This document shows positions 8,990-34,560 of a stretch of 37,603 nt of DNA, one piece after another. Each line of letters starts with the position of its first letter. Positions within the stretch are counted from its first letter, which is position 1. The translations under genes and the position numbers were made by a program. Source of the stretch: Escherichia phage T7; the sequence record PV223881; one strand, written 5' to 3'. The notes beneath the pieces were generated by a model. It was given only the letters and a program-made list of their open reading frames with translations. It searched no databases and was not told the DNA's origin.

Positions 8990-9012
8990 TAATTGAACTC
9001 ACTAAAGGGAGA
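8990..9012 (+). promoter_or_regulatory. T7 promoter phi3.8
   Basis: taattgaactcactaaagggaga. Confidence 0.75.
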
Positions 9013-9050
9013 CCACAGCGGTTTCCCTTTGTTCGCATTGGAGGTCAAAT
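9013..9050 (+). promoter_or_regulatory. RNase III site R3.8 (predicted from position)
   Basis: Leader ccacagcggtttccctttgttcgcattggaggtcaaataa; structure not computed. Confidence 0.35.
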
Positions 9051-9051
9051 A

Positions 9052-10801
<1,750 letters not shown>

Positions 10802-10869
10802 CAGGATTCTTGATAGTTGTTTCATATGAAGAGATTGTTAAGTCACGATAATCAATAGGAGAAATCAAT

Positions 10870-12984
10870 ATGATCGTTTCTGACATCGAAGCTAACGCCC
10901 TCTTAGAGAGCGTCACTAAGTTCCACTGCGGGGTTATCTACGACTACTCCACCGCTGAGTACGTAAGCTACCGTCCGAGTGACTTCGGTGCGTATCTGGA
11001 TGCGCTGGAAGCCGAGGTTGCACGAGGCGGTCTTATTGTGTTCCACAACGGTCACAAGTATGACGTTCCTGCATTGACCAAACTGGCAAAGTTGCAATTG
11101 AACCGAGAGTTCCACCTTCCTCGTGAGAACTGTATTGACACCCTTGTGTTGTCACGTTTGATTCATTCCAACCTCAAGGACACCGATATGGGTCTTCTGC
11201 GTTCCGGCAAGTTGCCCGGAAAACGCTTTGGGTCTCACGCTTTGGAGGCGTGGGGTTATCGCTTAGGCGAGATGAAGGGTGAATACAAAGACGACTTTAA
11301 GCGTATGCTTGAAGAGCAGGGTGAAGAATACGTTGACGGAATGGAGTGGTGGAACTTCAACGAAGAGATGATGGACTATAACGTTCAGGACGTTGTGGTA
11401 ACTAAAGCTCTCCTTGAGAAGCTACTCTCTGACAAACATTACTTCCCTCCTGAGATTAACTTTACGGACGTAGGATACACTACGTTCTGGTCAGAATCCC
11501 TTGAGGCCGTTGACATTGAACATCGTGCTGCATGGCTGCTCGCTAAACAAGAGCGCAACGGGTTCCCGTTTGACACAAAAGCAATCGAAGAGTTGTACGT
11601 AGAGTTAGCTGCTCGCCGCTCTGAGTTGCTCCGTAAATTGACCGAAACGTTCGGCTCGTGGTATCAGCCTAAAGGTGGCACTGAGATGTTCTGCCATCCG
11701 CGAACAGGTAAGCCACTACCTAAATACCCTCGCATTAAGACACCTAAAGTTGGTGGTATCTTTAAGAAGCCTAAGAACAAGGCACAGCGAGAAGGCCGTG
11801 AGCCTTGCGAACTTGATACCCGCGAGTACGTTGCTGGTGCTCCTTACACCCCAGTTGAACATGTTGTGTTTAACCCTTCGTCTCGTGACCACATTCAGAA
11901 GAAACTCCAAGAGGCTGGGTGGGTCCCGACCAAGTACACCGATAAGGGTGCTCCTGTGGTGGACGATGAGGTACTCGAAGGAGTACGTGTAGATGACCCT
12001 GAGAAGCAAGCCGCTATCGACCTCATTAAAGAGTACTTGATGATTCAGAAGCGAATCGGACAGTCTGCTGAGGGAGACAAAGCATGGCTTCGTTATGTTG
12101 CTGAGGATGGTAAGATTCATGGTTCTGTTAACCCTAATGGAGCAGTTACGGGTCGTGCGACCCATGCGTTCCCAAACCTTGCGCAAATTCCGGGTGTACG
12201 TTCTCCTTATGGAGAGCAGTGTCGCGCTGCTTTTGGCGCTGAGCACCATTTGGATGGGATAACTGGTAAGCCTTGGGTTCAGGCTGGCATCGACGCATCC
12301 GGTCTTGAGCTACGCTGCTTGGCTCACTTCATGGCTCGCTTTGATAACGGCGAGTACGCTCACGAGATTCTTAACGGCGACATCCACACTAAGAACCAGA
12401 TAGCTGCTGAACTACCTACCCGAGATAACGCTAAGACGTTCATCTATGGGTTCCTCTATGGTGCTGGTGATGAGAAGATTGGACAGATTGTTGGTGCTGG
12501 TAAAGAGCGCGGTAAGGAACTCAAGAAGAAATTCCTTGAGAACACCCCCGCGATTGCAGCACTCCGCGAGTCTATCCAACAGACACTTGTCGAGTCCTCT
12601 CAATGGGTAGCTGGTGAGCAACAAGTCAAGTGGAAACGCCGCTGGATTAAAGGTCTGGATGGTCGTAAGGTACACGTTCGTAGTCCTCACGCTGCCTTGA
12701 ATACCCTACTGCAATCTGCTGGTGCTCTCATCTGCAAACTGTGGATTATCAAGACCGAAGAGATGCTCGTAGAGAAAGGCTTGAAGCATGGCTGGGATGG
12801 GGACTTTGCGTACATGGCATGGGTACATGATGAAATCCAAGTAGGCTGCCGTACCGAAGAGATTGCTCAGGTGGTCATTGAGACCGCACAAGAAGCGATG
12901 CGCTGGGTTGGAGACCACTGGAACTTCCGGTGTCTTCTGGATACCGAAGGTAAGATGGGTCCTAATTGGGCGATTTGCCACTGA
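10870..12984 (+). CDS. 5: DNA polymerase gp5
   Basis: 704-aa [42 protein letters not shown]... Confidence 0.98.
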
Positions 12985-13029
12985 TACAGGAGGCTACTCA
13001 AAAGGCATAAAACTATAGGAGAAATTATT

Positions 13030-13329
13030 ATGGCTATGACAAAGAAATTTAAAGTGTCCTTCGACGTTACCGCAAAGATGTCGTCTGACGTTCAGGCAAT
13101 CTTAGAGAAAGATATGCTGCATCTATGTAAGCAGGTCGGCTCAGGTGCGATTGTCCCCAATGGTAAACAGAAGGAAATGATTGTCCAGTTCCTGACACAC
13201 GGTATGGAAGGATTGATGACATTCGTAGTACGTACATCATTTCGTGAGGCCATTAAGGACATGCACGAAGAGTATGCAGATAAGGACTCTTTCAAACAAT
13301 CTCCTGCAACAGTACGGGAGGTGTTCTGA
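13030..13329 (+). CDS. 5.5: gp5.5 (H-NS binding protein)
   Basis: 99-aa ORF MAMTKKFKVSFDVTAKMSSDVQAILEKDML... Confidence 0.9.
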   Translation: MAMTKKFKVSFDVTAKMSSDVQAILEKDMLHLCKQVGSGAIVPNGKQKEMIVQFLTHGMEGLMTFVVRTSFREAIKDMHEEYADKDSFKQSPATVREVF

Positions 13330-13538
13330 TGTCTGACTACCTGAAAGTGCTGCAAGCAATCAAAAGTTGCCCTAAGACTTTCCAGTCCAACTATGTACGG
13401 AACAATGCGAGCCTCGTAGCGGAGGCCGCTTCCCGTGGTCACATCTCGTGCCTGACTACTAGTGGACGTAACGGTGGCGCTTGGGAAATCACTGCTTCCG
13501 GTACTCGCTTTCTGAAACGAATGGGAGGATGTGTCTAA
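13329..13538 (+). CDS. 5.7: gp5.7
   Basis: 69-aa ORF MSDYLKVLQAIKSCPKTFQSNYVRNN...; start overlaps 5.5 stop. Confidence 0.88.
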   Translation: MSDYLKVLQAIKSCPKTFQSNYVRNNASLVAEAASRGHISCLTTSGRNGGAWEITASGTRFLKRMGGCV

Positions 13539-13696
13539 TGTCTCGTGACCTTGTGACTATTCCACGCGATGTGTGGAACGATATACAGGGCTACATCGAC
13601 TCTCTGGAACGTGAGAACGATAGCCTTAAGAATCAACTAATGGAAGCTGACGAATACGTAGCGGAACTAGAGGAGAAACTTAATGGCACTTCTTGA
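13538..13696 (+). CDS. 5.9: gp5.9 (RecBCD inhibitor)
   Basis: ATG at 13538 overlapping 5.7 stop; MSRDLVTIPRDVWNDIQGYIDSLERENDSLKNQLMEADEYVAELEEKLNGTS. Confidence 0.85.
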   Translation: MSRDLVTIPRDVWNDIQGYIDSLERENDSLKNQLMEADEYVAELEEKLNGTS

Positions 13697-14585
13697 CCTT
13701 AAACAATTCTATGAGTTACGTGAAGGCTGCGACGACAAGGGTATCCTTGTGATGGACGGCGACTGGCTGGTCTTCCAAGCTATGAGTGCTGCTGAGTTTG
13801 ATGCCTCTTGGGAGGAAGAGATTTGGCACCGATGCTGTGACCACGCTAAGGCCCGTCAGATTCTTGAGGATTCCATTAAGTCCTACGAGACCCGTAAGAA
13901 GGCTTGGGCAGGTGCTCCAATTGTCCTTGCGTTCACCGATAGTGTTAACTGGCGTAAAGAACTGGTTGACCCGAACTATAAGGCTAACCGTAAGGCCGTG
14001 AAGAAACCTGTAGGGTACTTTGAGTTCCTTGATGCTCTCTTTGAGCGCGAAGAGTTCTATTGCATCCGTGAGCCTATGCTTGAGGGTGATGACGTTATGG
14101 GAGTTATTGCTTCCAATCCGTCTGCCTTCGGTGCTCGTAAGGCTGTAATCATCTCTTGCGATAAGGACTTTAAGACCATCCCTAACTGTGACTTCCTGTG
14201 GTGTACCACTGGTAACATCCTGACTCAGACCGAAGAGTCCGCTGACTGGTGGCACCTCTTCCAGACCATCAAGGGTGACATCACTGATGGTTACTCAGGG
14301 ATTGCTGGATGGGGTGATACCGCCGAGGACTTCTTGAATAACCCGTTCATAACCGAGCCTAAAACGTCTGTGCTTAAGTCCGGTAAGAACAAAGGCCAAG
14401 AGGTTACTAAATGGGTTAAACGCGACCCTGAGCCTCATGAGACGCTTTGGGACTGCATTAAGTCCATTGGCGCGAAGGCTGGTATGACCGAAGAGGATAT
14501 TATCAAGCAGGGCCAAATGGCTCGAATCCTACGGTTCAACGAGTACAACTTTATTGACAAGGAGATTTACCTGTGGAGACCGTAG
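13683..14585 (+). CDS. 6: 5'-3' exonuclease gp6
   Basis: 300-aa ORF MALLDLKQFYELREGCDDKGILVMDGDWLVFQAM... Confidence 0.97.
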   Translation: MALLDLKQFYELREGCDDKGILVMDGDWLVFQAMSAAEFDASWEEEIWHRCCDHAKARQILEDSIKSYETRKKAWAGAPIVLAFTDSVNWRKELVDPNYKANRKAVKKPVGYFEFLDALFEREEFYCIREPMLEGDDVMGVIASNPSAFGARKAVIISCDKDFKTIPNCDFLWCTTGNILTQTEESADWWHLFQTIKGDITDGYSGIAGWGDTAEDFLNNPFITEPKTSVLKSGKNKGQEVTKWVKRDPEPHETLWDCIKSIGAKAGMTEEDIIKQGQMARILRFNEYNFIDKEIYLWRP

Positions 14586-14686
14586 CGTATATTGGTCTGG
14601 GTCTTTGTGTTCTCGGAGTGTGCCTCATTTCGTGGGGCCTTTGGGACTTAGCCAGAATAATCAAGTCGTTACACGACACTAAGTGA
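14573..14686 (+). CDS. 6.3: gp6.3 (37 aa, GTG start)
   Basis: GTG at 14573 in frame to TGA at 14684-14686; ...AYIGLGLCVLGVCLISWGLWDLARIIKSLHDTK. Confidence 0.6.
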   Translation: METVAYIGLGLCVLGVCLISWGLWDLARIIKSLHDTK

Positions 14687-14706
14687 TAAACTCAAGGTCC
14701 CTAAAT

Positions 14707-14729
14707 TAATACGACTCACTATAGGGAGA
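14707..14729 (+). promoter_or_regulatory. T7 class III promoter phi6.5
   Basis: taatacgactcactatagggaga (exact consensus). Confidence 0.9.
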
Positions 14730-14780
14730 TAGGGGCCTTTACGATTATTACTTTAAGATTTAACTCTAAGAGGAATCTTT
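14730..14780 (+). promoter_or_regulatory. RNase III site R6.5 (predicted from position)
   Basis: Leader after phi6.5; structure not computed. Confidence 0.35.
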
Positions 14781-14783
14781 ATT

Positions 14784-15038
14784 ATGTTAACACCTATTAA
14801 CCAATTACTTAAGAACCCTAACGATATTCCAGATGTACCTCGTGCAACCGCTGAGTATCTACAGGTTCGATTCAACTATGCGTACCTCGAAGCGTCTGGT
14901 CATATAGGACTTATGCGTGCTAATGGTTGTAGTGAGGCCCACATCTTGGGTTTCATTCAGGGCCTACAGTATGCCTCTAACGTCATTGACGAGATTGAGT
15001 TACGCAAGGAACAACTAAGAGATGATGGGGAGGATTGA
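14784..15038 (+). CDS. 6.5: gp6.5
   Basis: 84-aa [33 protein letters not shown]... Confidence 0.88.
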
Positions 15039-15042
15039 CACT

Positions 15043-15309
15043 ATGTGTTTCTCACCGAAAATTAAAACTCCGAAGATGGATACCAATCAGATTCGAGCCG
15101 TTGAGCCAGCGCCTCTGACCCAAGAAGTGTCAAGCGTGGAGTTCGGTGGGTCTTCTGATGAGACGGATACCGAGGGCACCGAAGTGTCTGGACGCAAAGG
15201 CCTCAAGGTCGAACGTGATGATTCCGTAGCGAAGTCTAAAGCCAGCGGCAATGGCTCCGCTCGTATGAAATCTTCCATCCGTAAGTCCGCATTTGGAGGT
15301 AAGAAGTGA
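15043..15309 (+). CDS. 6.7: gp6.7 (virion protein)
   Basis: ATG 15043, MCFSPKIKTPKMDTNQIRAVEPAP... 88 aa. Confidence 0.85.
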   Translation: MCFSPKIKTPKMDTNQIRAVEPAPLTQEVSSVEFGGSSDETDTEGTEVSGRKGLKVERDDSVAKSKASGNGSARMKSSIRKSAFGGKK

Positions 15310-15710
15310 TGTCTGAGTTCACATGTGTGGAGGCTAAGAGTCGCTTCCGTGCAATCCGGTGGACTGTGGAACACCTTGGGTTGCCTAAAGGATTCGAAGG
15401 ACACTTTGTGGGCTACAGCCTCTACGTAGACGAAGTGATGGACATGTCTGGTTGCCGTGAAGAGTACATTCTGGACTCTACCGGAAAACATGTAGCGTAC
15501 TTCGCGTGGTGCGTAAGCTGTGACATTCACCACAAAGGAGACATTCTGGATGTAACGTCCGTTGTCATTAATCCTGAGGCAGACTCTAAGGGCTTACAGC
15601 GATTCCTAGCGAAACGCTTTAAGTACCTTGCGGAACTCCACGATTGCGATTGGGTGTCTCGTTGTAAGCATGAAGGCGAGACAATGCGTGTATACTTTAA
15701 GGAGGTATAA
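15309..15710 (+). CDS. 7: gp7 (host-range / virion assembly protein)
   Basis: ATG 15309 overlapping 6.7 stop; MSEFTCVEAKSRFRAIRWTVEHLGLPKGF... 133 aa. Confidence 0.85.
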   Translation: MSEFTCVEAKSRFRAIRWTVEHLGLPKGFEGHFVGYSLYVDEVMDMSGCREEYILDSTGKHVAYFAWCVSCDIHHKGDILDVTSVVINPEADSKGLQRFLAKRFKYLAELHDCDWVSRCKHEGETMRVYFKEV

Positions 15711-15713
15711 GTT

Positions 15714-16013
15714 ATGGGTAAGAAAGTTAAGAAGGCCGTGAAGAAAGTCACCAAGTCCGTTAAGAAAGTCGTTAAGGAAGGGGCTCGTCCGGTTAAACAG
15801 GTTGCTGGCGGTCTAGCTGGTCTGGCTGGTGGTACTGGTGAAGCACAGATGGTGGAAGCACCACAAGCTGCCGCACAGATTGTTGACGTACCTGAGAAAG
15901 AGGTTTCCACTGAGGACGAAGCACAGACAGAAAGCGGACGCAAGAAAGCTCGTGCTGGCGGTAAGAAATCCTTGAGTGTAGCCCGTAGCTCCGGTGGCGG
16001 TATCAACATTTAA
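15714..16013 (+). CDS. 7.3: gp7.3 (virion/tail-associated protein)
   Basis: 99-aa lysine-rich ORF MGKKVKKAVKKVTKSVKKVVKEG... Confidence 0.88.
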   Translation: MGKKVKKAVKKVTKSVKKVVKEGARPVKQVAGGLAGLAGGTGEAQMVEAPQAAAQIVDVPEKEVSTEDEAQTESGRKKARAGGKKSLSVARSSGGGINI

Positions 16014-16026
16014 TCAGGAGGTTATC

Positions 16027-16290
16027 GTGGAAGACTGCATTGAATGGACCGGAGGTGTCAACTCTAAGGGTTATGGTCGTAAGTGGGTTAATGGTAAACT
16101 TGTGACTCCACATAGGCACATCTATGAGGAGACATATGGTCCAGTTCCAACAGGAATTGTGGTGATGCATATCTGCGATAACCCTAGGTGCTATAACATA
16201 AAGCACCTTACGCTTGGAACTCCAAAGGATAATTCCGAGGACATGGTTACCAAAGGTAGACAGGCTAAAGGAGAGGAACTAAGCAAGTAA
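16027..16290 (+). pseudogene. 7.7: Gene 7.7 (HNH endonuclease-like) truncated after codon 87 by the inserted cassette
   Basis: GTG 16027 (ggagg SD); VEDCIEWTGGVNSKGYGRKWVNGKLV...GEELSK then TAA supplied by the inserted promoter's TAATACGACTC. Confidence 0.75.
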
Positions 16291-16310
16291 TACGACTCAC
16301 TATAGGCCTC
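16288..16310 (+). promoter_or_regulatory. Inserted consensus T7 promoter (pET-type, no lac operator)
   Basis: taatacgactcactatagg directly followed by cctctagaaataattttg; not at any native T7 promoter position. Confidence 0.9.
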
Positions 16311-16350
16311 TAGAAATAATTTTGTTTAACTTTAAGAAGGAGATATACAT
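16309..16350 (+). promoter_or_regulatory. Synthetic 5' leader: XbaI site plus gene-10 (pET) RBS
   Basis: tctagaaataattttgtttaactttaagaaggagatatacat, then NdeI catatg at the start codon. Confidence 0.9.
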
Positions 16351-17874
16351 ATGGGCAGCAGCCATCATCATCATCATCACAGCAGCGGCGCTAAGACTCA
16401 AGCAGAAATAAATAAACGTTTAGACGCTTATGCAAAAGGTACAGTAGACAGTCCTTATAGAATTAAAAAAGCTACAAGCTATGACCCATCGTTTGGTGTA
16501 ATGGAAGCAGGAGCAATTGACGCAGATGGTTACTATCATGCACAGTGCCAAGACTTAATTACTGATTATGTATTATGGTTAACAGATAATAAAGTTAGAA
16601 CTTGGGGTAATGCTAAAGACCAAATCAAACAAAGTTATGGTACTGGATTTAAAATACATGAAAATAAACCTTCTACAGTACCTAAAAAAGGATGGATTGC
16701 TGTATTTACATCCGGTAGTTATCAGCAATGGGGTCACATAGGTATTGTATATGATGGAGGTAATACTTCTACATTTACTATTTTAGAGCAAAACTGGAAC
16801 GGTTACGCTAATAAAAAACCTACAAAACGTGTAGATAATTATTACGGATTAACTCATTTTATTGAGATACCTGTAAAAGCAGGAACTACTGTTAAAAAAG
16901 AAACAGCTAAGAAAAGTGCAAGTAAAACACCTGCACCTAAAAAGAAAGCAACACTAAAAGTTTCTAAGAACCATATTAACTATACAATGGATAAACGTGG
17001 TAAGAAACCTGAAGGAATGGTAATACACAACGATGCAGGTCGTTCTTCAGGGCAACAATACGAGAATTCATTAGCTAACGCAGGTTATGCTAGATATGCT
17101 AATGGTATTGCTCATTACTATGGCTCTGAAGGTTATGTATGGGAAGCAATAGATGCTAAGAATCAAATTGCTTGGCACACAGGAGATGGAACAGGAGCAA
17201 ACTCAGGTAACTTTAGATTTGCAGGTATTGAAGTCTGTCAATCAATGAGTGCTAGTGATGCTCAATTCCTTAAAAACGAACAAGCAGTATTCCAATTTAC
17301 TGCAGAGAAATTTAAAGAATGGGGTCTTACTCCTAATCGTAAAACTGTAAGATTGCATATGGAATTTGTTCCAACAGCTTGTCCTCATCGTTCTATGGTT
17401 CTTCATACAGGATTTAATCCAGTAACACAAGGAAGACCATCTCAAGCAATAATGAATAAACTAAAAGATTATTTCATTAAACAAATTAAAAACTACATGG
17501 ATAAAGGAACTTCAAGTTCTACAGTAGTTAAAGACGGTAAAACAAGTAGCGCAAGTACACCGGCAACTAGACCAGTAACAGGCTCTTGGAAAAAGAACCA
17601 GTACGGAACTTGGTACAAACCGGAAAATGCAACATTTGTTAATGGTAACCAACCTATAGTAACTAGAATAGGTTCTCCATTCTTAAATGCTCCAGTAGGA
17701 GGTAACTTACCGGCAGGAGCTACAATTGTATATGACGAAGTTTGTATCCAAGCAGGTCACATTTGGATAGGTTACAATGCTTACAATGGTGACAGAGTAT
17801 ATTGCCCTGTTAGAACTTGTCAAGGAGTTCCACCTAATCATATACCTGGGGTTGCCTGGGGAGTATTCAAATAG
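16351..17874 (+). CDS. lysK: Heterologous His6-tagged staphylococcal phage endolysin (LysK family: CHAP peptidase, amidase_2, SH3b cell-wall binding)
   Basis: [13 protein letters not shown] tag then [24 protein letters not shown]...YHAQCQDL (CHAP Cys) ...[15 protein letters not shown]; AT-rich codon usage unlike the T7 backbone. Confidence 0.9.
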
Positions 17875-17906
17875 TACTACAGCGTAAGACATGGAGACAC
17901 ATTTAA
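17875..17906 (+). other. Retained 3' end of gene 7.7 carrying the gene 8 RBS and overlapping stop/start (TAATG)
   Basis: tactacagcgtaagacatggagacacatttaATG immediately before gene 8, as in T7. Confidence 0.6.
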
Positions 17907-19516
17907 TGGCTGAGAAACGAACAGGACTTGCGGAGGATGGCGCAAAGTCTGTCTATGAGCGTTTAAAGAACGACCGTGCTCCCTATGAGACACGCGCTCA
18001 GAATTGCGCTCAATATACCATCCCATCATTGTTCCCTAAGGACTCCGATAACGCCTCTACAGATTATCAAACTCCGTGGCAAGCCGTGGGCGCTCGTGGT
18101 CTGAACAATCTAGCCTCTAAGCTCATGCTGGCTCTATTCCCTATGCAGACTTGGATGCGACTTACTATATCTGAATATGAAGCAAAGCAGTTACTGAGCG
18201 ACCCCGATGGACTCGCTAAGGTCGATGAGGGCCTCTCGATGGTAGAGCGTATCATCATGAACTACATTGAGTCTAACAGTTACCGCGTGACTCTCTTTGA
18301 GGCTCTCAAACAGTTAGTCGTAGCTGGTAACGTCCTGCTGTACCTACCGGAACCGGAAGGGTCAAACTATAATCCCATGAAGCTGTACCGATTGTCTTCT
18401 TATGTGGTCCAACGAGACGCATTCGGCAACGTTCTGCAAATGGTGACTCGTGACCAGATAGCTTTTGGTGCTCTCCCTGAGGACATCCGTAAGGCTGTAG
18501 AAGGTCAAGGTGGTGAGAAGAAAGCTGATGAGACAATCGACGTGTACACTCACATCTATCTGGATGAGGACTCAGGTGAATACCTCCGATACGAAGAGGT
18601 CGAGGGTATGGAAGTCCAAGGCTCCGATGGGACTTATCCTAAAGAGGCTTGCCCATACATCCCGATTCGGATGGTCAGACTAGATGGTGAATCCTACGGT
18701 CGTTCGTACATTGAGGAATACTTAGGTGACTTACGGTCCCTTGAAAATCTCCAAGAGGCTATCGTCAAGATGTCCATGATTAGCTCTAAGGTTATCGGCT
18801 TAGTGAATCCTGCTGGTATCACCCAGCCACGCCGACTGACCAAAGCTCAGACTGGTGACTTCGTTACTGGTCGTCCAGAAGACATCTCGTTCCTCCAACT
18901 GGAGAAGCAAGCAGACTTTACTGTAGCTAAAGCCGTAAGTGACGCTATCGAGGCTCGCCTTTCGTTTGCCTTTATGTTGAACTCTGCGGTTCAGCGTACA
19001 GGTGAACGTGTGACCGCCGAAGAGATTCGGTATGTAGCTTCTGAACTTGAAGATACTTTAGGTGGTGTCTACTCTATCCTTTCTCAAGAATTACAATTGC
19101 CTCTGGTACGAGTGCTCTTGAAGCAACTACAAGCCACGCAACAGATTCCTGAGTTACCTAAGGAAGCCGTAGAGCCAACCATTAGTACAGGTCTGGAAGC
19201 AATTGGTCGAGGACAAGACCTTGATAAGCTGGAGCGGTGTGTCACTGCGTGGGCTGCACTGGCACCTATGCGGGACGACCCTGATATTAACCTTGCGATG
19301 ATTAAGTTACGTATTGCCAACGCTATCGGTATTGACACTTCTGGTATTCTACTCACCGAAGAACAGAAGCAACAGAAGATGGCCCAACAGTCTATGCAAA
19401 TGGGTATGGATAATGGTGCTGCTGCGCTGGCTCAAGGTATGGCTGCACAAGCTACAGCTTCACCTGAGGCTATGGCTGCTGCCGCTGATTCCGTAGGTTT
19501 ACAGCCGGGAATTTAA
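17906..19516 (+). CDS. 8: Head-to-tail connector (portal) protein gp8
   Basis: MAEKRTGLAEDGAKSVYERLKNDRAPYETRAQNCAQYTIPSLFP... 536 aa. Confidence 0.97.
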   Translation: MAEKRTGLAEDGAKSVYERLKNDRAPYETRAQNCAQYTIPSLFPKDSDNASTDYQTPWQAVGARGLNNLASKLMLALFPMQTWMRLTISEYEAKQLLSDPDGLAKVDEGLSMVERIIMNYIESNSYRVTLFEALKQLVVAGNVLLYLPEPEGSNYNPMKLYRLSSYVVQRDAFGNVLQMVTRDQIAFGALPEDIRKAVEGQGGEKKADETIDVYTHIYLDEDSGEYLRYEEVEGMEVQGSDGTYPKEACPYIPIRMVRLDGESYGRSYIEEYLGDLRSLENLQEAIVKMSMISSKVIGLVNPAGITQPRRLTKAQTGDFVTGRPEDISFLQLEKQADFTVAKAVSDAIEARLSFAFMLNSAVQRTGERVTAEEIRYVASELEDTLGGVYSILSQELQLPLVRVLLKQLQATQQIPELPKEAVEPTISTGLEAIGRGQDLDKLERCVTAWAALAPMRDDPDINLAMIKLRIANAIGIDTSGILLTEEQKQQKMAQQSMQMGMDNGAAALAQGMAAQATASPEAMAAAADSVGLQPGI

Positions 19517-19536
19517 TACGACTCACTATAGGGAGA
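19514..19536 (+). promoter_or_regulatory. T7 class III promoter phi9
   Basis: taatacgactcactatagggaga. Confidence 0.9.
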
Positions 19537-19615
19537 CCTCATCTTTGAAATGAGCGATGACAAGAGGTTGGAGTCCTCGGTCTTCCTGTAGTTCAACTTT
19601 AAGGAGACAATAATA

Positions 19616-20539
19616 ATGGCTGAATCTAATGCAGACGTATATGCATCTTTTGGCGTGAACTCCGCTGTGATGTCTGGTGGTTCCGTTGAGGAACATGAGC
19701 AGAACATGCTGGCTCTTGATGTTGCTGCCCGTGATGGCGATGATGCAATCGAGTTAGCGTCAGACGAAGTGGAAACAGAACGTGACCTGTATGACAACTC
19801 TGACCCGTTCGGTCAAGAGGATGACGAAGGCCGCATTCAGGTTCGTATCGGTGATGGCTCTGAGCCGACCGATGTGGACACTGGAGAAGAAGGCGTTGAG
19901 GGCACCGAAGGTTCCGAAGAGTTTACCCCACTGGGCGAGACTCCAGAAGAACTGGTAGCTGCCTCTGAGCAACTTGGTGAGCACGAAGAGGGCTTCCAAG
20001 AGATGATTAACATTGCTGCTGAGCGTGGCATGAGTGTCGAGACCATTGAGGCTATCCAGCGTGAGTACGAGGAGAACGAAGAGTTGTCCGCCGAGTCCTA
20101 CGCTAAGCTGGCTGAAATTGGCTACACGAAGGCTTTCATTGACTCGTATATCCGTGGTCAAGAAGCTCTGGTGGAGCAGTACGTAAACAGTGTCATTGAG
20201 TACGCTGGTGGTCGTGAACGTTTTGATGCACTGTATAACCACCTTGAGACGCACAACCCTGAGGCTGCACAGTCGCTGGATAATGCGTTGACCAATCGTG
20301 ACTTAGCGACCGTTAAGGCTATCATCAACTTGGCTGGTGAGTCTCGCGCTAAGGCGTTCGGTCGTAAGCCAACTCGTAGTGTGACTAATCGTGCTATTCC
20401 GGCTAAACCTCAGGCTACCAAGCGTGAAGGCTTTGCGGACAGTAGCGAGATGATTAAAGCTATGAGTGACCCTCGGTATCGCACAGATGCCAACTATCGT
20501 CGTCAAGTCGAACAGAAAGTAATCGATTCGAACTTCTGA
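19616..20539 (+). CDS. 9: Capsid assembly (scaffolding) protein gp9
   Basis: 307-aa acidic ORF MAESNADVYASFGVNSAVMSGGSVEEHEQNMLALD... Confidence 0.96.
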   Translation: MAESNADVYASFGVNSAVMSGGSVEEHEQNMLALDVAARDGDDAIELASDEVETERDLYDNSDPFGQEDDEGRIQVRIGDGSEPTDVDTGEEGVEGTEGSEEFTPLGETPEELVAASEQLGEHEEGFQEMINIAAERGMSVETIEAIQREYEENEELSAESYAKLAEIGYTKAFIDSYIRGQEALVEQYVNSVIEYAGGRERFDALYNHLETHNPEAAQSLDNALTNRDLATVKAIINLAGESRAKAFGRKPTRSVTNRAIPAKPQATKREGFADSSEMIKAMSDPRYRTDANYRRQVEQKVIDSNF

Positions 20540-20552
20540 TAGACTTCGAAAT

Positions 20553-20575
20553 TAATACGACTCACTATAGGGAGA
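20553..20575 (+). promoter_or_regulatory. T7 class III promoter phi10
   Basis: taatacgactcactatagggaga followed by the gene 10 leader stem-loop. Confidence 0.92.
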
Positions 20576-20632
20576 CCACAACGGTTTCCCTCTAGAAATA
20601 ATTTTGTTTAACTTTAAGAAGGAGATATACAT

Positions 20633-21670
20633 ATGGCTAGCATGACTGGTGGACAGCAAATGGGTACTAACCAAGGTAAAGGTGTAGTTGCTGCTGGAGA
20701 TAAACTGGCGTTGTTCTTGAAGGTATTTGGCGGTGAAGTCCTGACTGCGTTCGCTCGTACCTCCGTGACCACTTCTCGCCACATGGTACGTTCCATCTCC
20801 AGCGGTAAATCCGCTCAGTTCCCTGTTCTGGGTCGCACTCAGGCAGCGTATCTGGCTCCGGGCGAGAACCTCGACGATAAACGTAAGGACATCAAACACA
20901 CCGAGAAGGTAATCACCATTGACGGTCTCCTGACGGCTGACGTTCTGATTTATGATATTGAGGACGCGATGAACCACTACGACGTTCGCTCTGAGTATAC
21001 CTCTCAGTTGGGTGAATCTCTGGCGATGGCTGCGGATGGTGCGGTTCTGGCTGAGATTGCCGGTCTGTGTAACGTGGAAAGCAAATATAATGAGAACATC
21101 GAGGGCTTAGGTACTGCTACCGTAATTGAGACCACTCAGAACAAGGCCGCACTTACCGACCAAGTTGCGCTGGGTAAGGAGATTATTGCGGCTCTGACTA
21201 AGGCTCGTGCGGCTCTGACCAAGAACTATGTTCCGGCTGCTGACCGTGTGTTCTACTGTGACCCAGATAGCTACTCTGCGATTCTGGCAGCACTGATGCC
21301 GAACGCAGCAAACTACGCTGCTCTGATTGACCCTGAGAAGGGTTCTATCCGCAACGTTATGGGCTTTGAGGTTGTAGAAGTTCCGCACCTCACCGCTGGT
21401 GGTGCTGGTACCGCTCGTGAGGGCACTACTGGTCAGAAGCACGTCTTCCCTGCCAATAAAGGTGAGGGTAATGTCAAGGTTGCTAAGGACAACGTTATCG
21501 GCCTGTTCATGCACCGCTCTGCGGTAGGTACTGTTAAGCTGCGTGACTTGGCTCTGGAGCGCGCTCGCCGTGCTAACTTCCAAGCGGACCAGATTATCGC
21601 TAAGTACGCAATGGGCCACGGTGGTCTTCGCCCAGAAGCTGCTGGTGCAGTGGTTTTCAAAGTGGAGTAA
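20633..21670 (+). CDS. 10A: Major capsid protein gp10A
   Basis: 345-aa ORF MASMTGGQQMGTNQGKGVVAAGDKLALFLKVFGG...AVVFKVE. Confidence 0.98.
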   Translation: MASMTGGQQMGTNQGKGVVAAGDKLALFLKVFGGEVLTAFARTSVTTSRHMVRSISSGKSAQFPVLGRTQAAYLAPGENLDDKRKDIKHTEKVITIDGLLTADVLIYDIEDAMNHYDVRSEYTSQLGESLAMAADGAVLAEIAGLCNVESKYNENIEGLGTATVIETTQNKAALTDQVALGKEIIAALTKARAALTKNYVPAADRVFYCDPDSYSAILAALMPNAANYAALIDPEKGSIRNVMGFEVVEVPHLTAGGAGTAREGTTGQKHVFPANKGEGNVKVAKDNVIGLFMHRSAVGTVKLRDLALERARRANFQADQIIAKYAMGHGGLRPEAAGAVVFKVE

Positions 21671-21828
21671 TGCTGGGGGTGGCCTCAACGGTCGCTGCTA
21701 GTCCCGAAGAGGCGAGTGTTACTTCAACAGAAGAAACCTTAACGCCAGCACAGAAGGCCGCACGCACCCGCGCTGCTAACAAAGCCCGAAAGGAAGCTGA
21801 GTTGACTGCTGCCACCGCTGAGCAATAA
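20633..21828 (+). CDS. 10B: Minor capsid protein gp10B, made by programmed -1 frameshift near the end of 10A
   Basis: -1 frame stays open past the 10A stop to TAA at 21826-21828; slippery ggttttc run near 21653. Confidence 0.75.
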
Positions 21829-21876
21829 CTAGCATAACCCCTTGGGGCCTCTAAACGGGTCTTGAGGGGTTTTTTG
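21829..21876 (+). terminator. T7 RNAP terminator Tphi
   Basis: ctagcataaccccttggggcctctaaacgggtcttgaggggttttttg. Confidence 0.92.
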
Positions 21877-21893
21877 CTGAAAGGAGGAACTAT

Positions 21894-22484
21894 ATGCGCT
21901 CATGCGATATGAACGTTGAGACTGCCGCTGAGTTATCAGCTGTGAACGACATTCTGGCGTCTATCGGTGAACCTCCGGTATCAACGCTGGAAGGTGACGC
22001 TAACGCAGATGTAGCGAACGCTCGGCGTATTCTCAACAAGATTAACCGACAGATTCAATCTCGTGGATGGACGTTCAACATTGAGGAAGGCATAACGCTA
22101 CTACCTGATGTTTACTCCAACCTGATTGTATACAGTGACGACTATTTATCCCTAATGTCTACTTCCGGTCAATCCATCTACGTTAACCGAGGTGGCTATG
22201 TGTATGACCGAACGAGTCAATCAGACCGCTTTGACTCTGGTATTACTGTGAACATTATTCGTCTCCGCGACTACGATGAGATGCCTGAGTGCTTCCGTTA
22301 CTGGATTGTCACCAAGGCTTCCCGTCAGTTCAACAACCGATTCTTTGGGGCACCGGAAGTAGAGGGTGTACTCCAAGAAGAGGAAGATGAGGCTAGACGT
22401 CTCTGCATGGAGTATGAGATGGACTACGGTGGGTACAATATGCTGGATGGAGATGCGTTCACTTCTGGTCTACTGACTCGCTAA
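21894..22484 (+). CDS. 11: Tail tubular protein A gp11
   Basis: 196-aa [38 protein letters not shown]... Confidence 0.96.
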
Positions 22485-22507
22485 CATTAATAAATAAGGA
22501 GGCTCTA

Positions 22508-24892
22508 ATGGCACTCATTAGCCAATCAATCAAGAACTTGAAGGGTGGTATCAGCCAACAGCCTGACATCCTTCGTTATCCAGACCAAGGGTCACGCCAA
22601 GTTAACGGTTGGTCTTCGGAGACCGAGGGCCTCCAAAAGCGTCCACCTCTTGTTTTCTTAAATACACTTGGAGACAACGGTGCGTTAGGTCAAGCTCCGT
22701 ACATCCACCTGATTAACCGAGATGAGCACGAACAGTATTACGCTGTGTTCACTGGTAGCGGAATCCGAGTGTTCGACCTTTCTGGTAACGAGAAGCAAGT
22801 TAGGTATCCTAACGGTTCCAACTACATCAAGACCGCTAATCCACGTAACGACCTGCGAATGGTTACTGTAGCAGACTATACGTTCATCGTTAACCGTAAC
22901 GTTGTTGCACAGAAGAACACAAAGTCTGTCAACTTACCGAATTACAACCCTAATCAAGACGGATTGATTAACGTTCGTGGTGGTCAGTATGGTAGGGAAC
23001 TAATTGTACACATTAACGGTAAAGACGTTGCGAAGTATAAGATACCAGATGGTAGTCAACCTGAACACGTAAACAATACGGATGCCCAATGGTTAGCTGA
23101 AGAGTTAGCCAAGCAGATGCGCACTAACTTGTCTGATTGGACTGTAAATGTAGGGCAAGGGTTCATCCATGTGACCGCACCTAGTGGTCAACAGATTGAC
23201 TCCTTCACGACTAAAGATGGCTACGCAGACCAGTTGATTAACCCTGTGACCCACTACGCTCAGTCGTTCTCTAAGCTGCCACCTAATGCTCCTAACGGCT
23301 ACATGGTGAAAATCGTAGGGGACGCCTCTAAGTCTGCCGACCAGTATTACGTTCGGTATGACGCTGAGCGGAAAGTTTGGACTGAGACTTTAGGTTGGAA
23401 CACTGAGGACCAAGTTCTATGGGAAACCATGCCACACGCTCTTGTGCGAGCCGCTGACGGTAATTTCGACTTCAAGTGGCTTGAGTGGTCTCCTAAGTCT
23501 TGTGGTGACGTTGACACCAACCCTTGGCCTTCTTTTGTTGGTTCAAGTATTAACGATGTGTTCTTCTTCCGTAACCGCTTAGGATTCCTTAGTGGGGAGA
23601 ACATCATATTGAGTCGTACAGCCAAATACTTCAACTTCTACCCTGCGTCCATTGCGAACCTTAGTGATGACGACCCTATAGACGTAGCTGTGAGTACCAA
23701 CCGAATAGCAATCCTTAAGTACGCCGTTCCGTTCTCAGAAGAGTTACTCATCTGGTCCGATGAAGCACAATTCGTCCTGACTGCCTCGGGTACTCTCACA
23801 TCTAAGTCGGTTGAGTTGAACCTAACGACCCAGTTTGACGTACAGGACCGAGCGAGACCTTTTGGGATTGGGCGTAATGTCTACTTTGCTAGTCCGAGGT
23901 CCAGCTTCACGTCCATCCACAGGTACTACGCTGTGCAGGATGTCAGTTCCGTTAAGAATGCTGAGGACATTACATCACACGTTCCTAACTACATCCCTAA
24001 TGGTGTGTTCAGTATTTGCGGAAGTGGTACGGAAAACTTCTGTTCGGTACTATCTCACGGGGACCCTAGTAAAATCTTCATGTACAAATTCCTGTACCTG
24101 AACGAAGAGTTAAGGCAACAGTCGTGGTCTCATTGGGACTTTGGGGAAAACGTACAGGTTCTAGCTTGTCAGAGTATCAGCTCAGATATGTATGTGATTC
24201 TTCGCAATGAGTTCAATACGTTCCTAGCTAGAATCTCTTTCACTAAGAACGCCATTGACTTACAGGGAGAACCCTATCGTGCCTTTATGGACATGAAGAT
24301 TCGATACACGATTCCTAGTGGAACATACAACGATGACACATTCACTACCTCTATTCATATTCCAACAATTTATGGTGCAAACTTCGGGAGGGGCAAAATC
24401 ACTGTATTGGAGCCTGATGGTAAGATAACCGTGTTTGAGCAACCTACGGCTGGGTGGAATAGCGACCCTTGGCTGAGACTCAGCGGTAACTTGGAGGGAC
24501 GCATGGTGTACATTGGGTTCAACATTAACTTCGTATATGAGTTCTCTAAGTTCCTCATCAAGCAGACTGCCGACGACGGGTCTACCTCCACGGAAGACAT
24601 TGGGCGCTTACAGTTACGCCGAGCGTGGGTTAACTACGAGAACTCTGGTACGTTTGACATTTATGTTGAGAACCAATCGTCTAACTGGAAGTACACAATG
24701 ACTGGTGCCCGATTAGGCTCTAACACTCTGAGGGCTGGGAGACTGAACTTAGGGACCGGACAATATCGATTCCCTGTGGTTGGTAACGCCAAGTTCAACA
24801 CTGTATACATCTTGTCAGATGAGACTACCCCTCTGAACATCATTGGGTGTGGCTGGGAAGGTAACTACTTACGGAGAAGTTCCGGTATTTAA
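22508..24892 (+). CDS. 12: Tail tubular protein B gp12
   Basis: 794-aa ORF MALISQSIKNLKGGISQQPDILRYPDQGSRQVNGW... Confidence 0.97.
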   Translation: MALISQSIKNLKGGISQQPDILRYPDQGSRQVNGWSSETEGLQKRPPLVFLNTLGDNGALGQAPYIHLINRDEHEQYYAVFTGSGIRVFDLSGNEKQVRYPNGSNYIKTANPRNDLRMVTVADYTFIVNRNVVAQKNTKSVNLPNYNPNQDGLINVRGGQYGRELIVHINGKDVAKYKIPDGSQPEHVNNTDAQWLAEELAKQMRTNLSDWTVNVGQGFIHVTAPSGQQIDSFTTKDGYADQLINPVTHYAQSFSKLPPNAPNGYMVKIVGDASKSADQYYVRYDAERKVWTETLGWNTEDQVLWETMPHALVRAADGNFDFKWLEWSPKSCGDVDTNPWPSFVGSSINDVFFFRNRLGFLSGENIILSRTAKYFNFYPASIANLSDDDPIDVAVSTNRIAILKYAVPFSEELLIWSDEAQFVLTASGTLTSKSVELNLTTQFDVQDRARPFGIGRNVYFASPRSSFTSIHRYYAVQDVSSVKNAEDITSHVPNYIPNGVFSICGSGTENFCSVLSHGDPSKIFMYKFLYLNEELRQQSWSHWDFGENVQVLACQSISSDMYVILRNEFNTFLARISFTKNAIDLQGEPYRAFMDMKIRYTIPSGTYNDDTFTTSIHIPTIYGANFGRGKITVLEPDGKITVFEQPTAGWNSDPWLRLSGNLEGRMVYIGFNINFVYEFSKFLIKQTADDGSTSTEDIGRLQLRRAWVNYENSGTFDIYVENQSSNWKYTMTGARLGSNTLRAGRLNLGTGQYRFPVVGNAKFNTVYILSDETTPLNIIGCGWEGNYLRRSSGI

Positions 24893-24894
24893 TT

Positions 24895-24970
24895 AAATAT
24901 TCTCCCTGTGGTGGCTCGAAATTAATACGACTCACTATAGGGAGAACAATACGACTACGGGAGGGTTTTC
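24895..24970 (+). promoter_or_regulatory. RNase III site R13 region (predicted from position; overlaps phi13)
   Basis: Leader around phi13; structure not computed. Confidence 0.35.
24923..24945 (+). promoter_or_regulatory. T7 class III promoter phi13
   Basis: taatacgactcactatagggaga. Confidence 0.9.
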
Positions 24971-24972
24971 TT

Positions 24973-25389
24973 ATGATGACTATAAGACCTACTAAAAGTA
25001 CAGACTTTGAGGTATTCACTCCGGCTCACCATGACATTCTTGAAGCTAAGGCTGCTGGTATTGAGCCGAGTTTCCCTGATGCTTCCGAGTGTGTCACGTT
25101 GAGCCTCTATGGGTTCCCTCTAGCTATCGGTGGTAACTGCGGGGACCAGTGCTGGTTCGTTACGAGCGACCAAGTGTGGCGACTTAGTGGAAAGGCTAAG
25201 CGAAAGTTCCGTAAGTTAATCATGGAGTATCGCGATAAGATGCTTGAGAAGTATGATACTCTTTGGAATTACGTATGGGTAGGCAATACGTCCCACATTC
25301 GTTTCCTCAAGACTATCGGTGCGGTATTCCATGAAGAGTACACACGAGATGGTCAATTTCAGTTATTTACAATCACGAAAGGAGGATAA
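24973..25389 (+). CDS. 13: Internal virion protein gp13
   Basis: 138-aa ORF MMTIRPTKSTDFEVFTPAHHDILEAKAAGIEPSFPD... Confidence 0.93.
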   Translation: MMTIRPTKSTDFEVFTPAHHDILEAKAAGIEPSFPDASECVTLSLYGFPLAIGGNCGDQCWFVTSDQVWRLSGKAKRKFRKLIMEYRDKMLEKYDTLWNYVWVGNTSHIRFLKTIGAVFHEEYTRDGQFQLFTITKGG

Positions 25390-25393
25390 CCAT

Positions 25394-25984
25394 ATGTGTT
25401 GGGCAGCCGCAATACCTATCGCTATATCTGGCGCTCAGGCTATCAGTGATCAGAACGCTCAGGCCAAAATGATTGCCGCTCAGACCGCTGCTGGTCGTCG
25501 TCAAGCTATGGAAATCATGAGGCAGACGAACATCCAGAATGCTGACCTATCGTTGTCAGCTCGAAGTAAACTTGAGGAAGCGTCCGCCGAGTTGACCTCA
25601 CAGAACATGCAGAAGGTCCAAGCTATTGGGTCTATCCGAGCGGCTATCGGAGAGAGTATGCTTGAAGGTTCCTCAATGGACCGCATTAAGCGAGTCACAG
25701 AAGGACAGTTCATTCGGGAAGCCAATATGGTAACTGAGAACTATCGCCGTGACTACCAAGCAATCTTCGCACAGCAACTTGGTGGTACTCAAAGTGCTGC
25801 AAGTCAGATTGACGAAATCTATAAGAGCGAACAGAAACAGAAGAGTAAGCTACAGATGGTTCTGGACCCACTGGCTATCATGGGGTCTTCCGCTGCGAGT
25901 GCTTACGCATCCGGTGCGTTCGACTCTAAGTCCACAACTAAGGCACCTATTGTTGCCGCTAAAGGAACCAAGACGGGGAGGTAA
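25394..25984 (+). CDS. 14: Internal core protein gp14
   Basis: ATG 25394 after ggagg SD; MCWAAAIPIAISGAQAISDQNAQAKMIAAQTAAG... 196 aa. Confidence 0.93.
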   Translation: MCWAAAIPIAISGAQAISDQNAQAKMIAAQTAAGRRQAMEIMRQTNIQNADLSLSARSKLEEASAELTSQNMQKVQAIGSIRAAIGESMLEGSSMDRIKRVTEGQFIREANMVTENYRRDYQAIFAQQLGGTQSAASQIDEIYKSEQKQKSKLQMVLDPLAIMGSSAASAYASGAFDSKSTTKAPIVAAKGTKTGR

Positions 25985-25990
25985 TGAGCT

Positions 25991-28234
25991 ATGAGTAAAA
26001 TTGAATCTGCCCTTCAAGCGGCACAACCGGGACTCTCTCGGTTACGTGGTGGTGCTGGAGGTATGGGCTATCGTGCAGCAACCACTCAGGCCGAACAGCC
26101 AAGGTCAAGCCTATTGGACACCATTGGTCGGTTCGCTAAGGCTGGTGCCGATATGTATACCGCTAAGGAACAACGAGCACGAGACCTAGCTGATGAACGC
26201 TCTAACGAGATTATCCGTAAGCTGACCCCTGAGCAACGTCGAGAAGCTCTCAACAACGGGACCCTTCTGTATCAGGATGACCCATACGCTATGGAAGCAC
26301 TCCGAGTCAAGACTGGTCGTAACGCTGCGTATCTTGTGGACGATGACGTTATGCAGAAGATAAAAGAGGGTGTCTTCCGTACTCGCGAAGAGATGGAAGA
26401 GTATCGCCATAGTCGCCTTCAAGAGGGCGCTAAGGTATACGCTGAGCAGTTCGGCATCGACCCTGAGGACGTTGATTATCAGCGTGGTTTCAACGGGGAC
26501 ATTACCGAGCGTAACATCTCGCTGTATGGTGCGCATGATAACTTCTTGAGCCAGCAAGCTCAGAAGGGCGCTATCATGAACAGCCGAGTGGAACTCAACG
26601 GTGTCCTTCAAGACCCTGATATGCTGCGTCGTCCAGACTCTGCTGACTTCTTTGAGAAGTATATCGACAACGGTCTGGTTACTGGCGCAATCCCATCTGA
26701 TGCTCAAGCCACACAGCTTATAAGCCAAGCGTTCAGTGACGCTTCTAGCCGTGCTGGTGGTGCTGACTTCCTGATGCGAGTCGGTGACAAGAAGGTAACA
26801 CTTAACGGAGCCACTACGACTTACCGAGAGTTGATTGGTGAGGAACAGTGGAACGCTCTCATGGTCACAGCACAACGTTCTCAGTTTGAGACTGACGCGA
26901 AGCTGAACGAGCAGTATCGCTTGGAGATTAACTCTGCGCTGAACCAAGAGGACCCAAGGACAGCTTGGGAGATGCTTCAAGGTATCAAGGCTGAACTAGA
27001 TAAGGTCCAACCTGATGAGCAGATGACACCACAACGTGAGTGGCTAATCTCCGCACAGGAACAAGTTCAGAATCAGATGAACGCATGGACGAAAGCTCAG
27101 GCCAAGGCTCTGGACGATTCCATGAAGTCAATGAACAAACTTGACGTAATCGACAAGCAATTCCAGAAGCGAATCAACGGTGAGTGGGTCTCAACGGATT
27201 TTAAGGATATGCCAGTCAACGAGAACACTGGTGAGTTCAAGCATAGCGATATGGTTAACTACGCCAATAAGAAGCTCGCTGAGATTGACAGTATGGACAT
27301 TCCAGACGGTGCCAAGGATGCTATGAAGTTGAAGTACCTTCAAGCGGACTCTAAGGACGGAGCATTCCGTACAGCCATCGGAACCATGGTCACTGACGCT
27401 GGTCAAGAGTGGTCTGCCGCTGTGATTAACGGTAAGTTACCAGAACGAACCCCAGCTATGGATGCTCTGCGCAGAATCCGCAATGCTGACCCTCAGTTGA
27501 TTGCTGCGCTATACCCAGACCAAGCTGAGCTATTCCTGACGATGGACATGATGGACAAGCAGGGTATTGACCCTCAGGTTATTCTTGATGCCGACCGACT
27601 GACTGTTAAGCGGTCCAAAGAGCAACGCTTTGAGGATGATAAAGCATTCGAGTCTGCACTGAATGCATCTAAGGCTCCTGAGATTGCCCGTATGCCAGCG
27701 TCACTGCGCGAATCTGCACGTAAGATTTATGACTCCGTTAAGTATCGCTCGGGGAACGAAAGCATGGCTATGGAGCAGATGACCAAGTTCCTTAAGGAAT
27801 CTACCTACACGTTCACTGGTGATGATGTTGACGGTGATACCGTTGGTGTGATTCCTAAGAATATGATGCAGGTTAACTCTGACCCGAAATCATGGGAGCA
27901 AGGTCGGGATATTCTGGAGGAAGCACGTAAGGGAATCATTGCGAGCAACCCTTGGATAACCAATAAGCAACTGACCATGTATTCTCAAGGTGACTCCATT
28001 TACCTTATGGACACCACAGGTCAAGTCAGAGTCCGATACGACAAAGAGTTACTCTCGAAGGTCTGGAGTGAGAACCAGAAGAAACTCGAAGAGAAAGCTC
28101 GTGAGAAGGCTCTGGCTGATGTGAACAAGCGAGCACCTATAGTTGCCGCTACGAAGGCCCGTGAAGCTGCTGCTAAACGAGTCCGAGAGAAACGTAAACA
28201 GACTCCTAAGTTCATCTACGGACGTAAGGAGTAA
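25991..28234 (+). CDS. 15: Internal core protein gp15
   Basis: 747-aa ORF MSKIESALQAAQPGLSRLRGGAGGMGYRAATTQAEQPR... Confidence 0.96.
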   Translation: MSKIESALQAAQPGLSRLRGGAGGMGYRAATTQAEQPRSSLLDTIGRFAKAGADMYTAKEQRARDLADERSNEIIRKLTPEQRREALNNGTLLYQDDPYAMEALRVKTGRNAAYLVDDDVMQKIKEGVFRTREEMEEYRHSRLQEGAKVYAEQFGIDPEDVDYQRGFNGDITERNISLYGAHDNFLSQQAQKGAIMNSRVELNGVLQDPDMLRRPDSADFFEKYIDNGLVTGAIPSDAQATQLISQAFSDASSRAGGADFLMRVGDKKVTLNGATTTYRELIGEEQWNALMVTAQRSQFETDAKLNEQYRLEINSALNQEDPRTAWEMLQGIKAELDKVQPDEQMTPQREWLISAQEQVQNQMNAWTKAQAKALDDSMKSMNKLDVIDKQFQKRINGEWVSTDFKDMPVNENTGEFKHSDMVNYANKKLAEIDSMDIPDGAKDAMKLKYLQADSKDGAFRTAIGTMVTDAGQEWSAAVINGKLPERTPAMDALRRIRNADPQLIAALYPDQAELFLTMDMMDKQGIDPQVILDADRLTVKRSKEQRFEDDKAFESALNASKAPEIARMPASLRESARKIYDSVKYRSGNESMAMEQMTKFLKESTYTFTGDDVDGDTVGVIPKNMMQVNSDPKSWEQGRDILEEARKGIIASNPWITNKQLTMYSQGDSIYLMDTTGQVRVRYDKELLSKVWSENQKKLEEKAREKALADVNKRAPIVAATKAREAAAKRVREKRKQTPKFIYGRKE

Positions 28235-28260
28235 CTAAAGGCTACATAAGGAGGCCCTAA

Positions 28261-32217: not shown

Positions 32218-32237
32218 TACGACTCACTATAGGGAGA
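32215..32237 (+). promoter_or_regulatory. T7 class III promoter phi17
   Basis: taatacgactcactatagggaga overlapping the gene 16 stop. Confidence 0.9.
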
Positions 32238-32289
32238 GGCGAAATAATCTTCTCCCTGTAGTCTCTTAGATTTACTTTAAGGAGGTCAA

Positions 32290-33951: not shown

Positions 33952-34009
33952 TTGGTAAATCACAAGGAAAGACGTGTAGTCCACGGATGGACTCTCAAGG
34001 AGGTACAAG

Positions 34010-34213
34010 GTGCTATCATTAGACTTTAACAACGAATTGATTAAGGCTGCTCCAATTGTTGGGACGGGTGTAGCAGATGTTAGTGCTCGACTGTTCTTTG
34101 GGTTAAGCCTTAACGAATGGTTCTACGTTGCTGCTATCGCCTACACAGTGGTTCAGATTGGTGCCAAGGTAGTCGATAAGATGATTGACTGGAAGAAAGC
34201 CAATAAGGAGTGA
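34010..34213 (+). CDS. 17.5: Holin gp17.5
   Basis: 67-aa ORF with one hydrophobic segment (FFGLSLNEWFYVAAIAYTVVQIGA). Confidence 0.9.
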   Translation: MLSLDFNNELIKAAPIVGTGVADVSARLFFGLSLNEWFYVAAIAYTVVQIGAKVVDKMIDWKKANKE

Positions 34214-34218
34214 TATGT

Positions 34219-34488: not shown

Positions 34489-34494
34489 TATACT

Positions 34495-34560
34495 CAAGGC
34501 CACTACAGATAGTGGTCTTTATGGATGTCATTGTCTATACGAGATGCTCCTACGTGAAAT
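34495..34560 (+). promoter_or_regulatory. RNase III site R18.5 (predicted)
   Basis: Inverted repeat ggccactacagatagtggtc upstream of gene 18.5. Confidence 0.4.

Follow-up and report, generated by a model that had tools for sequence, protein, structure and literature searches.

Upstream of the portal gene, the window (the whole 37,603-nt stretch of DNA analysed here, record PV223881) holds a truncated gene 7.7, an inserted T7 promoter, a gene-10-type leader, an open reading frame of 507 aa for a His-tagged endolysin and a short spacer, followed by gene 8 (Table 1). The lysin frame is closed by TAG, and a 31-nt gap, TACTACAGCGTAAGACATGGAGACACATTTA, lies between this stop and the gene 8 ATG (17906-17908). 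A previous model-made reading of the same DNA (hereafter, the sequence-only reading) had located the lysin stop correctly and had placed the ATG within 32 nt of it, which is essentially right, although the span it gave for the junction (17875-17910) runs 5 nt into gene 8.

Table 1. Positions in the window of the lysin cassette and of the T7 elements around it (WT, wild-type T7 coordinates)
Feature	Position	Strand	Remarks
phi6.5, native class III promoter	14707..14729	+	+1 at 14724; 0 mismatches to 23-mer; WT 18545
Gene 7.7 remnant	16027..16290	+	87 codons, GTG start; WT-identical up to junction
Inserted T7 promoter (-17..+6)	16288..16310	+	+1 at 16305; consensus from -17 to +2 only; +3..+6 is CCTC
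Gene-10-type leader and RBS AAGGAG, as in pET vectors	16307..16350	+	Without the 5' stem-loop of the native phi10 leader
His6-LysGH15, Staphylococcus phage GH15 endolysin	16351..17874	+	CHAP, Amidase_2, SH3_5 (Pfam); stop TAG 17872-17874
Spacer	17875..17905	+	Native last 31 nt of gene 7.7 (WT 20209-20239); from T7-B/WT alignment and oligo HA-gp7.7
Gene 8, portal/head-tail connector, 536 aa	17906..19516	+	Pfam Head-tail_con, E = 2.8e-113; gp8 in PV223882; no promoter of its own
phi9, native promoter	19514..19536	+	Overlaps gene 8 stop codon
phi10, native promoter	20553..20575	+	23-mer match; WT annotation
Tphi	21836..21875	+	15-bp stem and T6; next T7 RNAP terminator after the inserted promoter, at a distance of 5.5 kb

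Origin and content of the cassette

In megablast comparisons, positions 1-16287 and 17875-37603 of the window were 100% identical to positions 1-16287 and 16288-36016, respectively, of PV223880 (T7-B), and positions 15000-19600 matched, with 100% identity and no shift in numbering, PV223882 ("Mutant Escherichia phage T7 clone recombinant T7-B-GJ"), in which the payload frame is annotated "LysGH15; from Staphylococcus aureus phage GH15". The remaining segment, 16288-17874, is a cassette of 1,587 bp identical to that in PV223882, and the 36,016 bp of T7-B plus this cassette make up the full 37,603 nt. The T7-B chassis was described as a 36,016-bp genome with seven deletions totalling 3,921 bp, and a 1.6-kb PT7-lysGH15 cassette encoding an N-terminal His tag was reported at the gp7.7 locus; Table S1 of that work assigns PV223881 to T7-B-G (Zhang et al., mBio 2025; PMC12153263). 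Brought in by recombineering, the cassette occupies the place of the 100-bp gene 7.7 deletion (WT 20109-20208), and no second payload was found at the gp10 locus, the window 3' of gene 10 being identical to T7-B. Judged from these identities, the window is the published, laboratory-built synthetic phage T7-B-G.

The left junction (...CTAAGCAAG followed by TAATACGACTC) and the right junction (...TTCAAATAG followed by TACTACAGCG) agree exactly with both 40-nt arms of HA-gp7.7, an oligo of the designers, indicating that the 31 nt of the spacer come from the native 3' end of gene 7.7. The promoter, His tag, locus and junctions agree with the published description of T7-B-G and T7-B-GJ (PV223881 and PV223882), with no detectable difference. 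The engineered origin can be recognised from the pET-type promoter and leader, the His tag, the low-GC staphylococcal gene and the seamless junctions, and the window can be attributed to a specific paper and accession set. The feature is already known, engineered and ordinary for T7 engineering, and as part of a published, man-made construct it carries little biological weight.

Several labels in the sibling GenBank records are unusual. The identical 160-bp direct terminal repeats (1-160 and 37444-37603) are entered as a 'cohesive-end site', the 345-aa product of gene 10A (20633-21670) is labelled gp10B, and in PV223880 gp18 is labelled gp1.8.

The payload, with a G + C content of 36.5% against 48% for the genome, shows the CHAP, Amidase_2 and SH3b architecture of the LysGH15/LysK staphylococcal endolysins, to which its predicted product is assigned; its PDB matches were 4OLK (E = 6.5e-112), 4OLS (1.5e-160) and 2MK5 (1.2e-85), together with LysK 4CSH. 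As in other effector-armed lytic phages (ref. 41 in PMC12153263), a payload enzyme is made during infection, released at lysis and kills bystanders; the chassis and payloads of those phages differ from those of T7-B-G, and the likeness is irrelevant to the question of a terminator. Upstream of the lysin frame, the 48 nt at 16307-16354 are identical to native positions 20589-20636, and the GGGAGACCACAACGGTTTCCC stem-loop of the native phi10 transcript is lacking. With its T7 promoter core, the leader CCTCTAGAAATAATTTTGTTTAACTTTAAGAAGGAGATATACATATG and an N-terminal tag, the cassette follows the pattern of pET-type vectors. It differs from a pET-type cassette in having neither a lac operator nor the phi10 5' stem-loop (the transcript starts GGCCUC), and in that no Tphi follows the lysin frame, termination being left to the phage Tphi 5.5 kb downstream.

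Two further observations concern this DNA. The cassette forms direct repeats with the native phi10/gene 10 leader (16288-16354 versus 20553-20636; 19 nt and 48 nt, 4.3 kb apart); since recombination between them would delete lysGH15 along with the essential genes 8 and 9, viable payload-loss mutants are not expected from this route. In addition, a strongly sigma-70-like element (TTGACA-16-TATACT, 11/12) lies on the minus strand at 17823-17796, pointing leftward inside the 3' end of the lysin gene, and is probably a chance match, as promoter-like matches in the region are not enriched (4 versus 9.1 in shuffles).

Gene 7.7 remnant and the start of gene 8

The remnant of gene 7.7 ends at the TAA with which the inserted promoter begins. 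This "deleted" gene retains a complete HNH_3 domain (residues 29-70; Pfam E = 1.1e-13), and, going by the sequence, the HNH domain is not abolished by the 100-bp deletion.

On the other side of the cassette, the spacer carries the gene 8 Shine-Dalgarno GGAG at 17893-17896, 9 nt before the ATG from which the product MAEKRTG... is read. That the native 3' end of gene 7.7 had been kept for gene 8 initiation, as the sequence-only reading suggested, agrees with the finding that these 31 nt with GGAG are the right arm of HA-gp7.7, and with a predicted pairing like that of T7-B: the predicted pairing probabilities of the Shine-Dalgarno and the AUG are 0.25 and 0.16 in T7-B-G versus 0.25-0.28 and 0.17-0.24 in T7-B. 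The predicted pairing is no worse than in wild type, and the AUG is less paired. We considered whether the new upstream context might bury the gene 8 ribosome-binding site and rejected this possibility, as the predicted pairing is that of the T7-B chassis.

The relation of gene 8 to the frame upstream did change. In wild-type T7 the gene 7.7 TAA overlaps the gene 8 ATG (TAATG), in T7-B the 7.7 remnant, shifted in frame, ends shortly after the start of gene 8, and in T7-B-G the lysin stops 31 nt before the ATG, so that, with the upstream frame ending earlier, the stop-start overlap is gone and no TAATG-type coupling of 7.7 and 8 is found. Gene 8 is translated independently, from its own native GGAG. 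We do not claim a general rule by which gene tails were kept to protect downstream ribosome-binding sites: the gp3.8 deletion leaves 6 nt before 4A, and among the chassis deletions whose coordinates are listed, the distance left to the following gene ranges from 6 to 55 nt. An in-frame ATG, native to T7 and with no evident Shine-Dalgarno, precedes the gene 8 start by five codons (17891-17905; METHLMAEKR...); the open-reading-frame lister takes it as the start of gene 8, and the deposited annotation uses 17906.

T7 promoters upstream of gene 8

The inserted promoter, TAATACGACTCACTATAGG at 16288-16306, has 0 mismatches to the 19-mer (19/19 from -17 to +2) but does not reach the 23-bp class III consensus, TAATACGACTCACTATAGGGAGA (-17..+6). 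Its CCTC at +3 to +6 stands where GAGA is found in all six native class III promoters (phi6.5, phi9, phi10, phi13, phi17 and phiOR), each of which matches at 23/23 positions and ends GGGAGA. By its bases, the element is a T7 promoter core and not the full class III consensus; the description of it as a strong consensus promoter in the sequence-only reading is accurate from -17 to +2 and fails at +3 to +6. The latter positions may affect output, as GGG-starting T7 promoters are the most active on average and positions +4 to +8 tune output about 5-fold in vitro (PMC7429497).

The closest native T7 promoter upstream of gene 8 is phi6.5. In wild-type T7 the next promoter after phi6.5 (18545) is phi9 (21865), in agreement with the statement that wild-type gene 8 lacks one immediately upstream; the 1,695 nt from phi6.5 to gene 8 in wild type contain no terminator, and the inserted promoter lies 1,601 nt from gene 8. 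The sequence-only reading had also presented the cassette promoter as a new one reading into gene 8. It is indeed added, but because the consensus phi6.5 already feeds gene 8, with no terminator between, it represents an added input and not a new kind of input.

Other T7 promoters were altered in construction of the chassis. The deletion of gene 1.4, which effectively covers WT 7609-7764 (the designers' homology arm begins at ACGACTCAC), clips phi1.5 at window positions 6124-6146, replacing -17..-14 and leaving 3 mismatches (TTTAACGACTCACTAAAGGAGGT in the window versus TAATACGACTCACTAAAGGAGGT in wild type); the gene 1.4 locus is also the one at which the lowest PT7-luciferase activity was reported (PMC12153263). 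In addition, the gp4.3-4.7 deletion (WT 13279-14297; window about 10800-10870) removes the class II promoters phi4.3 (WT 13341) and phi4.7 (13915), and thus the transcriptional input to the late region is already unlike wild type in the chassis, irrespective of the cassette.

Read-through into genes 8-10 and the share of the inserted promoter

The sequence-only reading had held that no hairpin with a U-tract precedes gene 8, and every search made here bears this out. A pattern scan of the + strand from 15561 to 20692 returned 0 terminator-like sites; Tphi was recovered at 21836-21871. The folded RNA of 17850-17935 had a minimum free energy (MFE) of -12.5 kcal/mol (z = +0.77), and 156 of 200 shuffles were at least as stable. 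Only the Tphi U-tract (21870-21875) was found among runs of at least five T on the + strand of 16305-21900, the longest run in the gap being 3. When 40-nt segments were folded along 16305-21900 in a sliding MFE scan (regional mean -6.3, sd 3.3), those beginning within 17840-17900 went no lower than -11.2 kcal/mol, compared to -22.8 for Tphi. Taken as a class, Tphi-type (class I) terminators, with a GC-rich hairpin and a U-run, are absent from 17875-17905 and from the + strand of 16305-21835. The sole + strand copy of the class II T7 RNAP signal ATCTGTT lies at 161-167, at the terminal-repeat junction (that at 16581-16587 is on the minus strand), and an Rfam search of the whole window gave 0 matches. 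A functional terminator in 17875..17905, the one sequence finding named beforehand as contrary to read-through, was looked for and not found.

The payload transcript might nevertheless be uncoupled from gene 8 by a cryptic signal for stopping or processing, located either at the junction or within the AT-rich foreign gene. The payload is foreign, with the low G + C content given above, and AT-rich RNA is a typical substrate of RNase E. Against such a signal, neither a hairpin with a U-tract nor a + strand ATCTGTT was found, the junction folds no more stably than its shuffles, and Rfam was empty. Moreover, no T7 promoter lies between the payload and the essential gene 8 and the phage is viable, so transcription must cross 17875-17905, the segment through which all transcripts reaching gene 8 have to pass. 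We regard an uncoupling signal as highly improbable.

With no terminator before gene 8, transcripts from the inserted promoter run into genes 8, 9 and 10 until Tphi; the sequence scans thus support the claim that they continue into genes 8 and 9, and extend it to gene 10. The cassette sits within the long late transcription unit from phi6.5 to Tphi, and lysGH15 would be transcribed both by polymerases coming from phi6.5 and earlier promoters and by those starting at 16305. As nothing would halt them, these polymerases would move onward through the 31-nt tail of gene 7.7 into genes 8, 9 and 10 until Tphi is reached. The native phi6.5-Tphi unit shows the same polycistronic read-through of genes 6.5-10, with phi9 and phi10 as additive inputs and a single terminator. 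T7-B-G differs from it in the non-native promoter placed ahead of gene 8, in the 1.5-kb foreign frame between 7.7' and 8, and in the 31-nt untranslated gap that takes the place of the TAATG overlap of 7.7 and 8. Consistently, T7 transcripts have been described as mostly polycistronic, with one incomplete terminator located after gene 10 (PMC6068830).

The absence of a terminator is deliberate and effectively required. A terminator at 17875 would leave the essential gene 8, which lacks a promoter of its own, out of reach of all T7 promoters; the reverse primers of the luciferase cassettes, at those loci whose primers were examined, likewise end at the stop codon and include no terminator. For designers, this means that a payload ahead of a promoter-less essential T7 gene cannot carry its own terminator, and that a promoter added with such a payload also feeds the downstream structural genes.

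Taken together, our analyses favor, with a probability of roughly 0.88, a reading in which T7-B-G carries a terminator-less cassette within the phi6.5-Tphi unit, read-through is intended and required, and the expression of genes 8-10 rises by a modest increment that the phage tolerates. The new promoter would add modestly to gene 8, 9 and 10 mRNA, by at most about one class III-like input and probably by less, because +3..+6 are non-consensus and the 5' stem-loop is missing. As to tolerance, T7-B-G cleared E. coli at an MOI of 0.001 and kept its cassette through 10 transfers (60-80 generations), and a promoter-less 3-kb insert at gp7.7 left infection about equal to that of T7-B (PMC12153263). 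For T7-B-G, neither transcript levels nor gp8 amounts, burst size or plaque size were found in the paper of Zhang et al. or its supplement; for T7-B, a burst size of 197 +/- 9 is reported there. That the added promoter raises gene 8 mRNA is plausible; the size and consequence of such a rise are what we infer here.

A modest increment also accords with the firefly luciferase reporters, whose PT7- and PJ23119-driven activities were identical at the gp7.7 locus (PMC12153263). The simplest reading of this equality argues that upstream read-through carries much of the expression, and alternatively J23119 could be active in the gp0.7-deleted chassis. Carried to its end, the former would mean that the inserted promoter contributes almost nothing, phi6.5 and upstream read-through driving the lysin and gene 8 and leaving gene 8 expression unchanged. 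Host RNA polymerase should largely be shut off by gp2 by the time the gp7.7-region DNA enters the cell, which together with the identical activities speaks for this possibility, as do the GGCCUC start instead of GGGAGA and a leader without the phi10 5' stem-loop. However, the same -17..+2 core with varied downstream sequence transcribes strongly in pET-type vectors. PT7 also outperformed PJ23119 at other loci in the same study (PMC12153263), and in a chassis without gp0.7 host polymerase may be shut off less strongly and J23119 genuinely active. A negligible contribution is thus possible, but we consider it the less probable outcome, and a modest increment remains the preferred reading.

At the opposite extreme, the inserted promoter might be strong enough for gene 8 mRNA and gp8 to rise by a factor of about 2 or more, which would upset portal stoichiometry and the balance of the late genes at a measurable cost in burst or plaque size. 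The perfect match from -17 to +2 and the lack of a terminator speak for this; furthermore, in phages from which phi9 and phi10 were removed, downstream RNA falls to about 14-22% and fitness is lower (PMC6068830), indicating that local class III promoters dominate the genes just downstream and that expression balance matters to T7, and reads climb sharply after phi6.5 (PMC6938266). Such an effect is nonetheless unlikely given the non-consensus +3..+6, the equal luciferase activities of the two promoters at gp7.7, and the clearing of cultures at an MOI of 0.001 with no cassette loss in 10 transfers; in our judgement, excess of a minor structural protein would also generally do less harm than its shortage. 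A similarly unlikely outcome is that, through transcription continuing from the added promoter, T7-B-G makes measurably more portal protein than the chassis does, with a slight excess of gp9 and gp10, and that procapsid assembly or burst size shifts as a result. In that case, T7-B-G would constitute an accidental test of how far T7 assembly tolerates excess portal.

A related case is that of the T7 strains attenuated by promoter knockout, in which the set of class III promoters supplying genes 8-10 was likewise changed in number and a response of dosage and balance to that number was shown (Paff et al. 2018, PMC6068830). In those strains promoters were removed, whereas in T7-B-G one was added, and it is in the former that both expression and fitness were measured.
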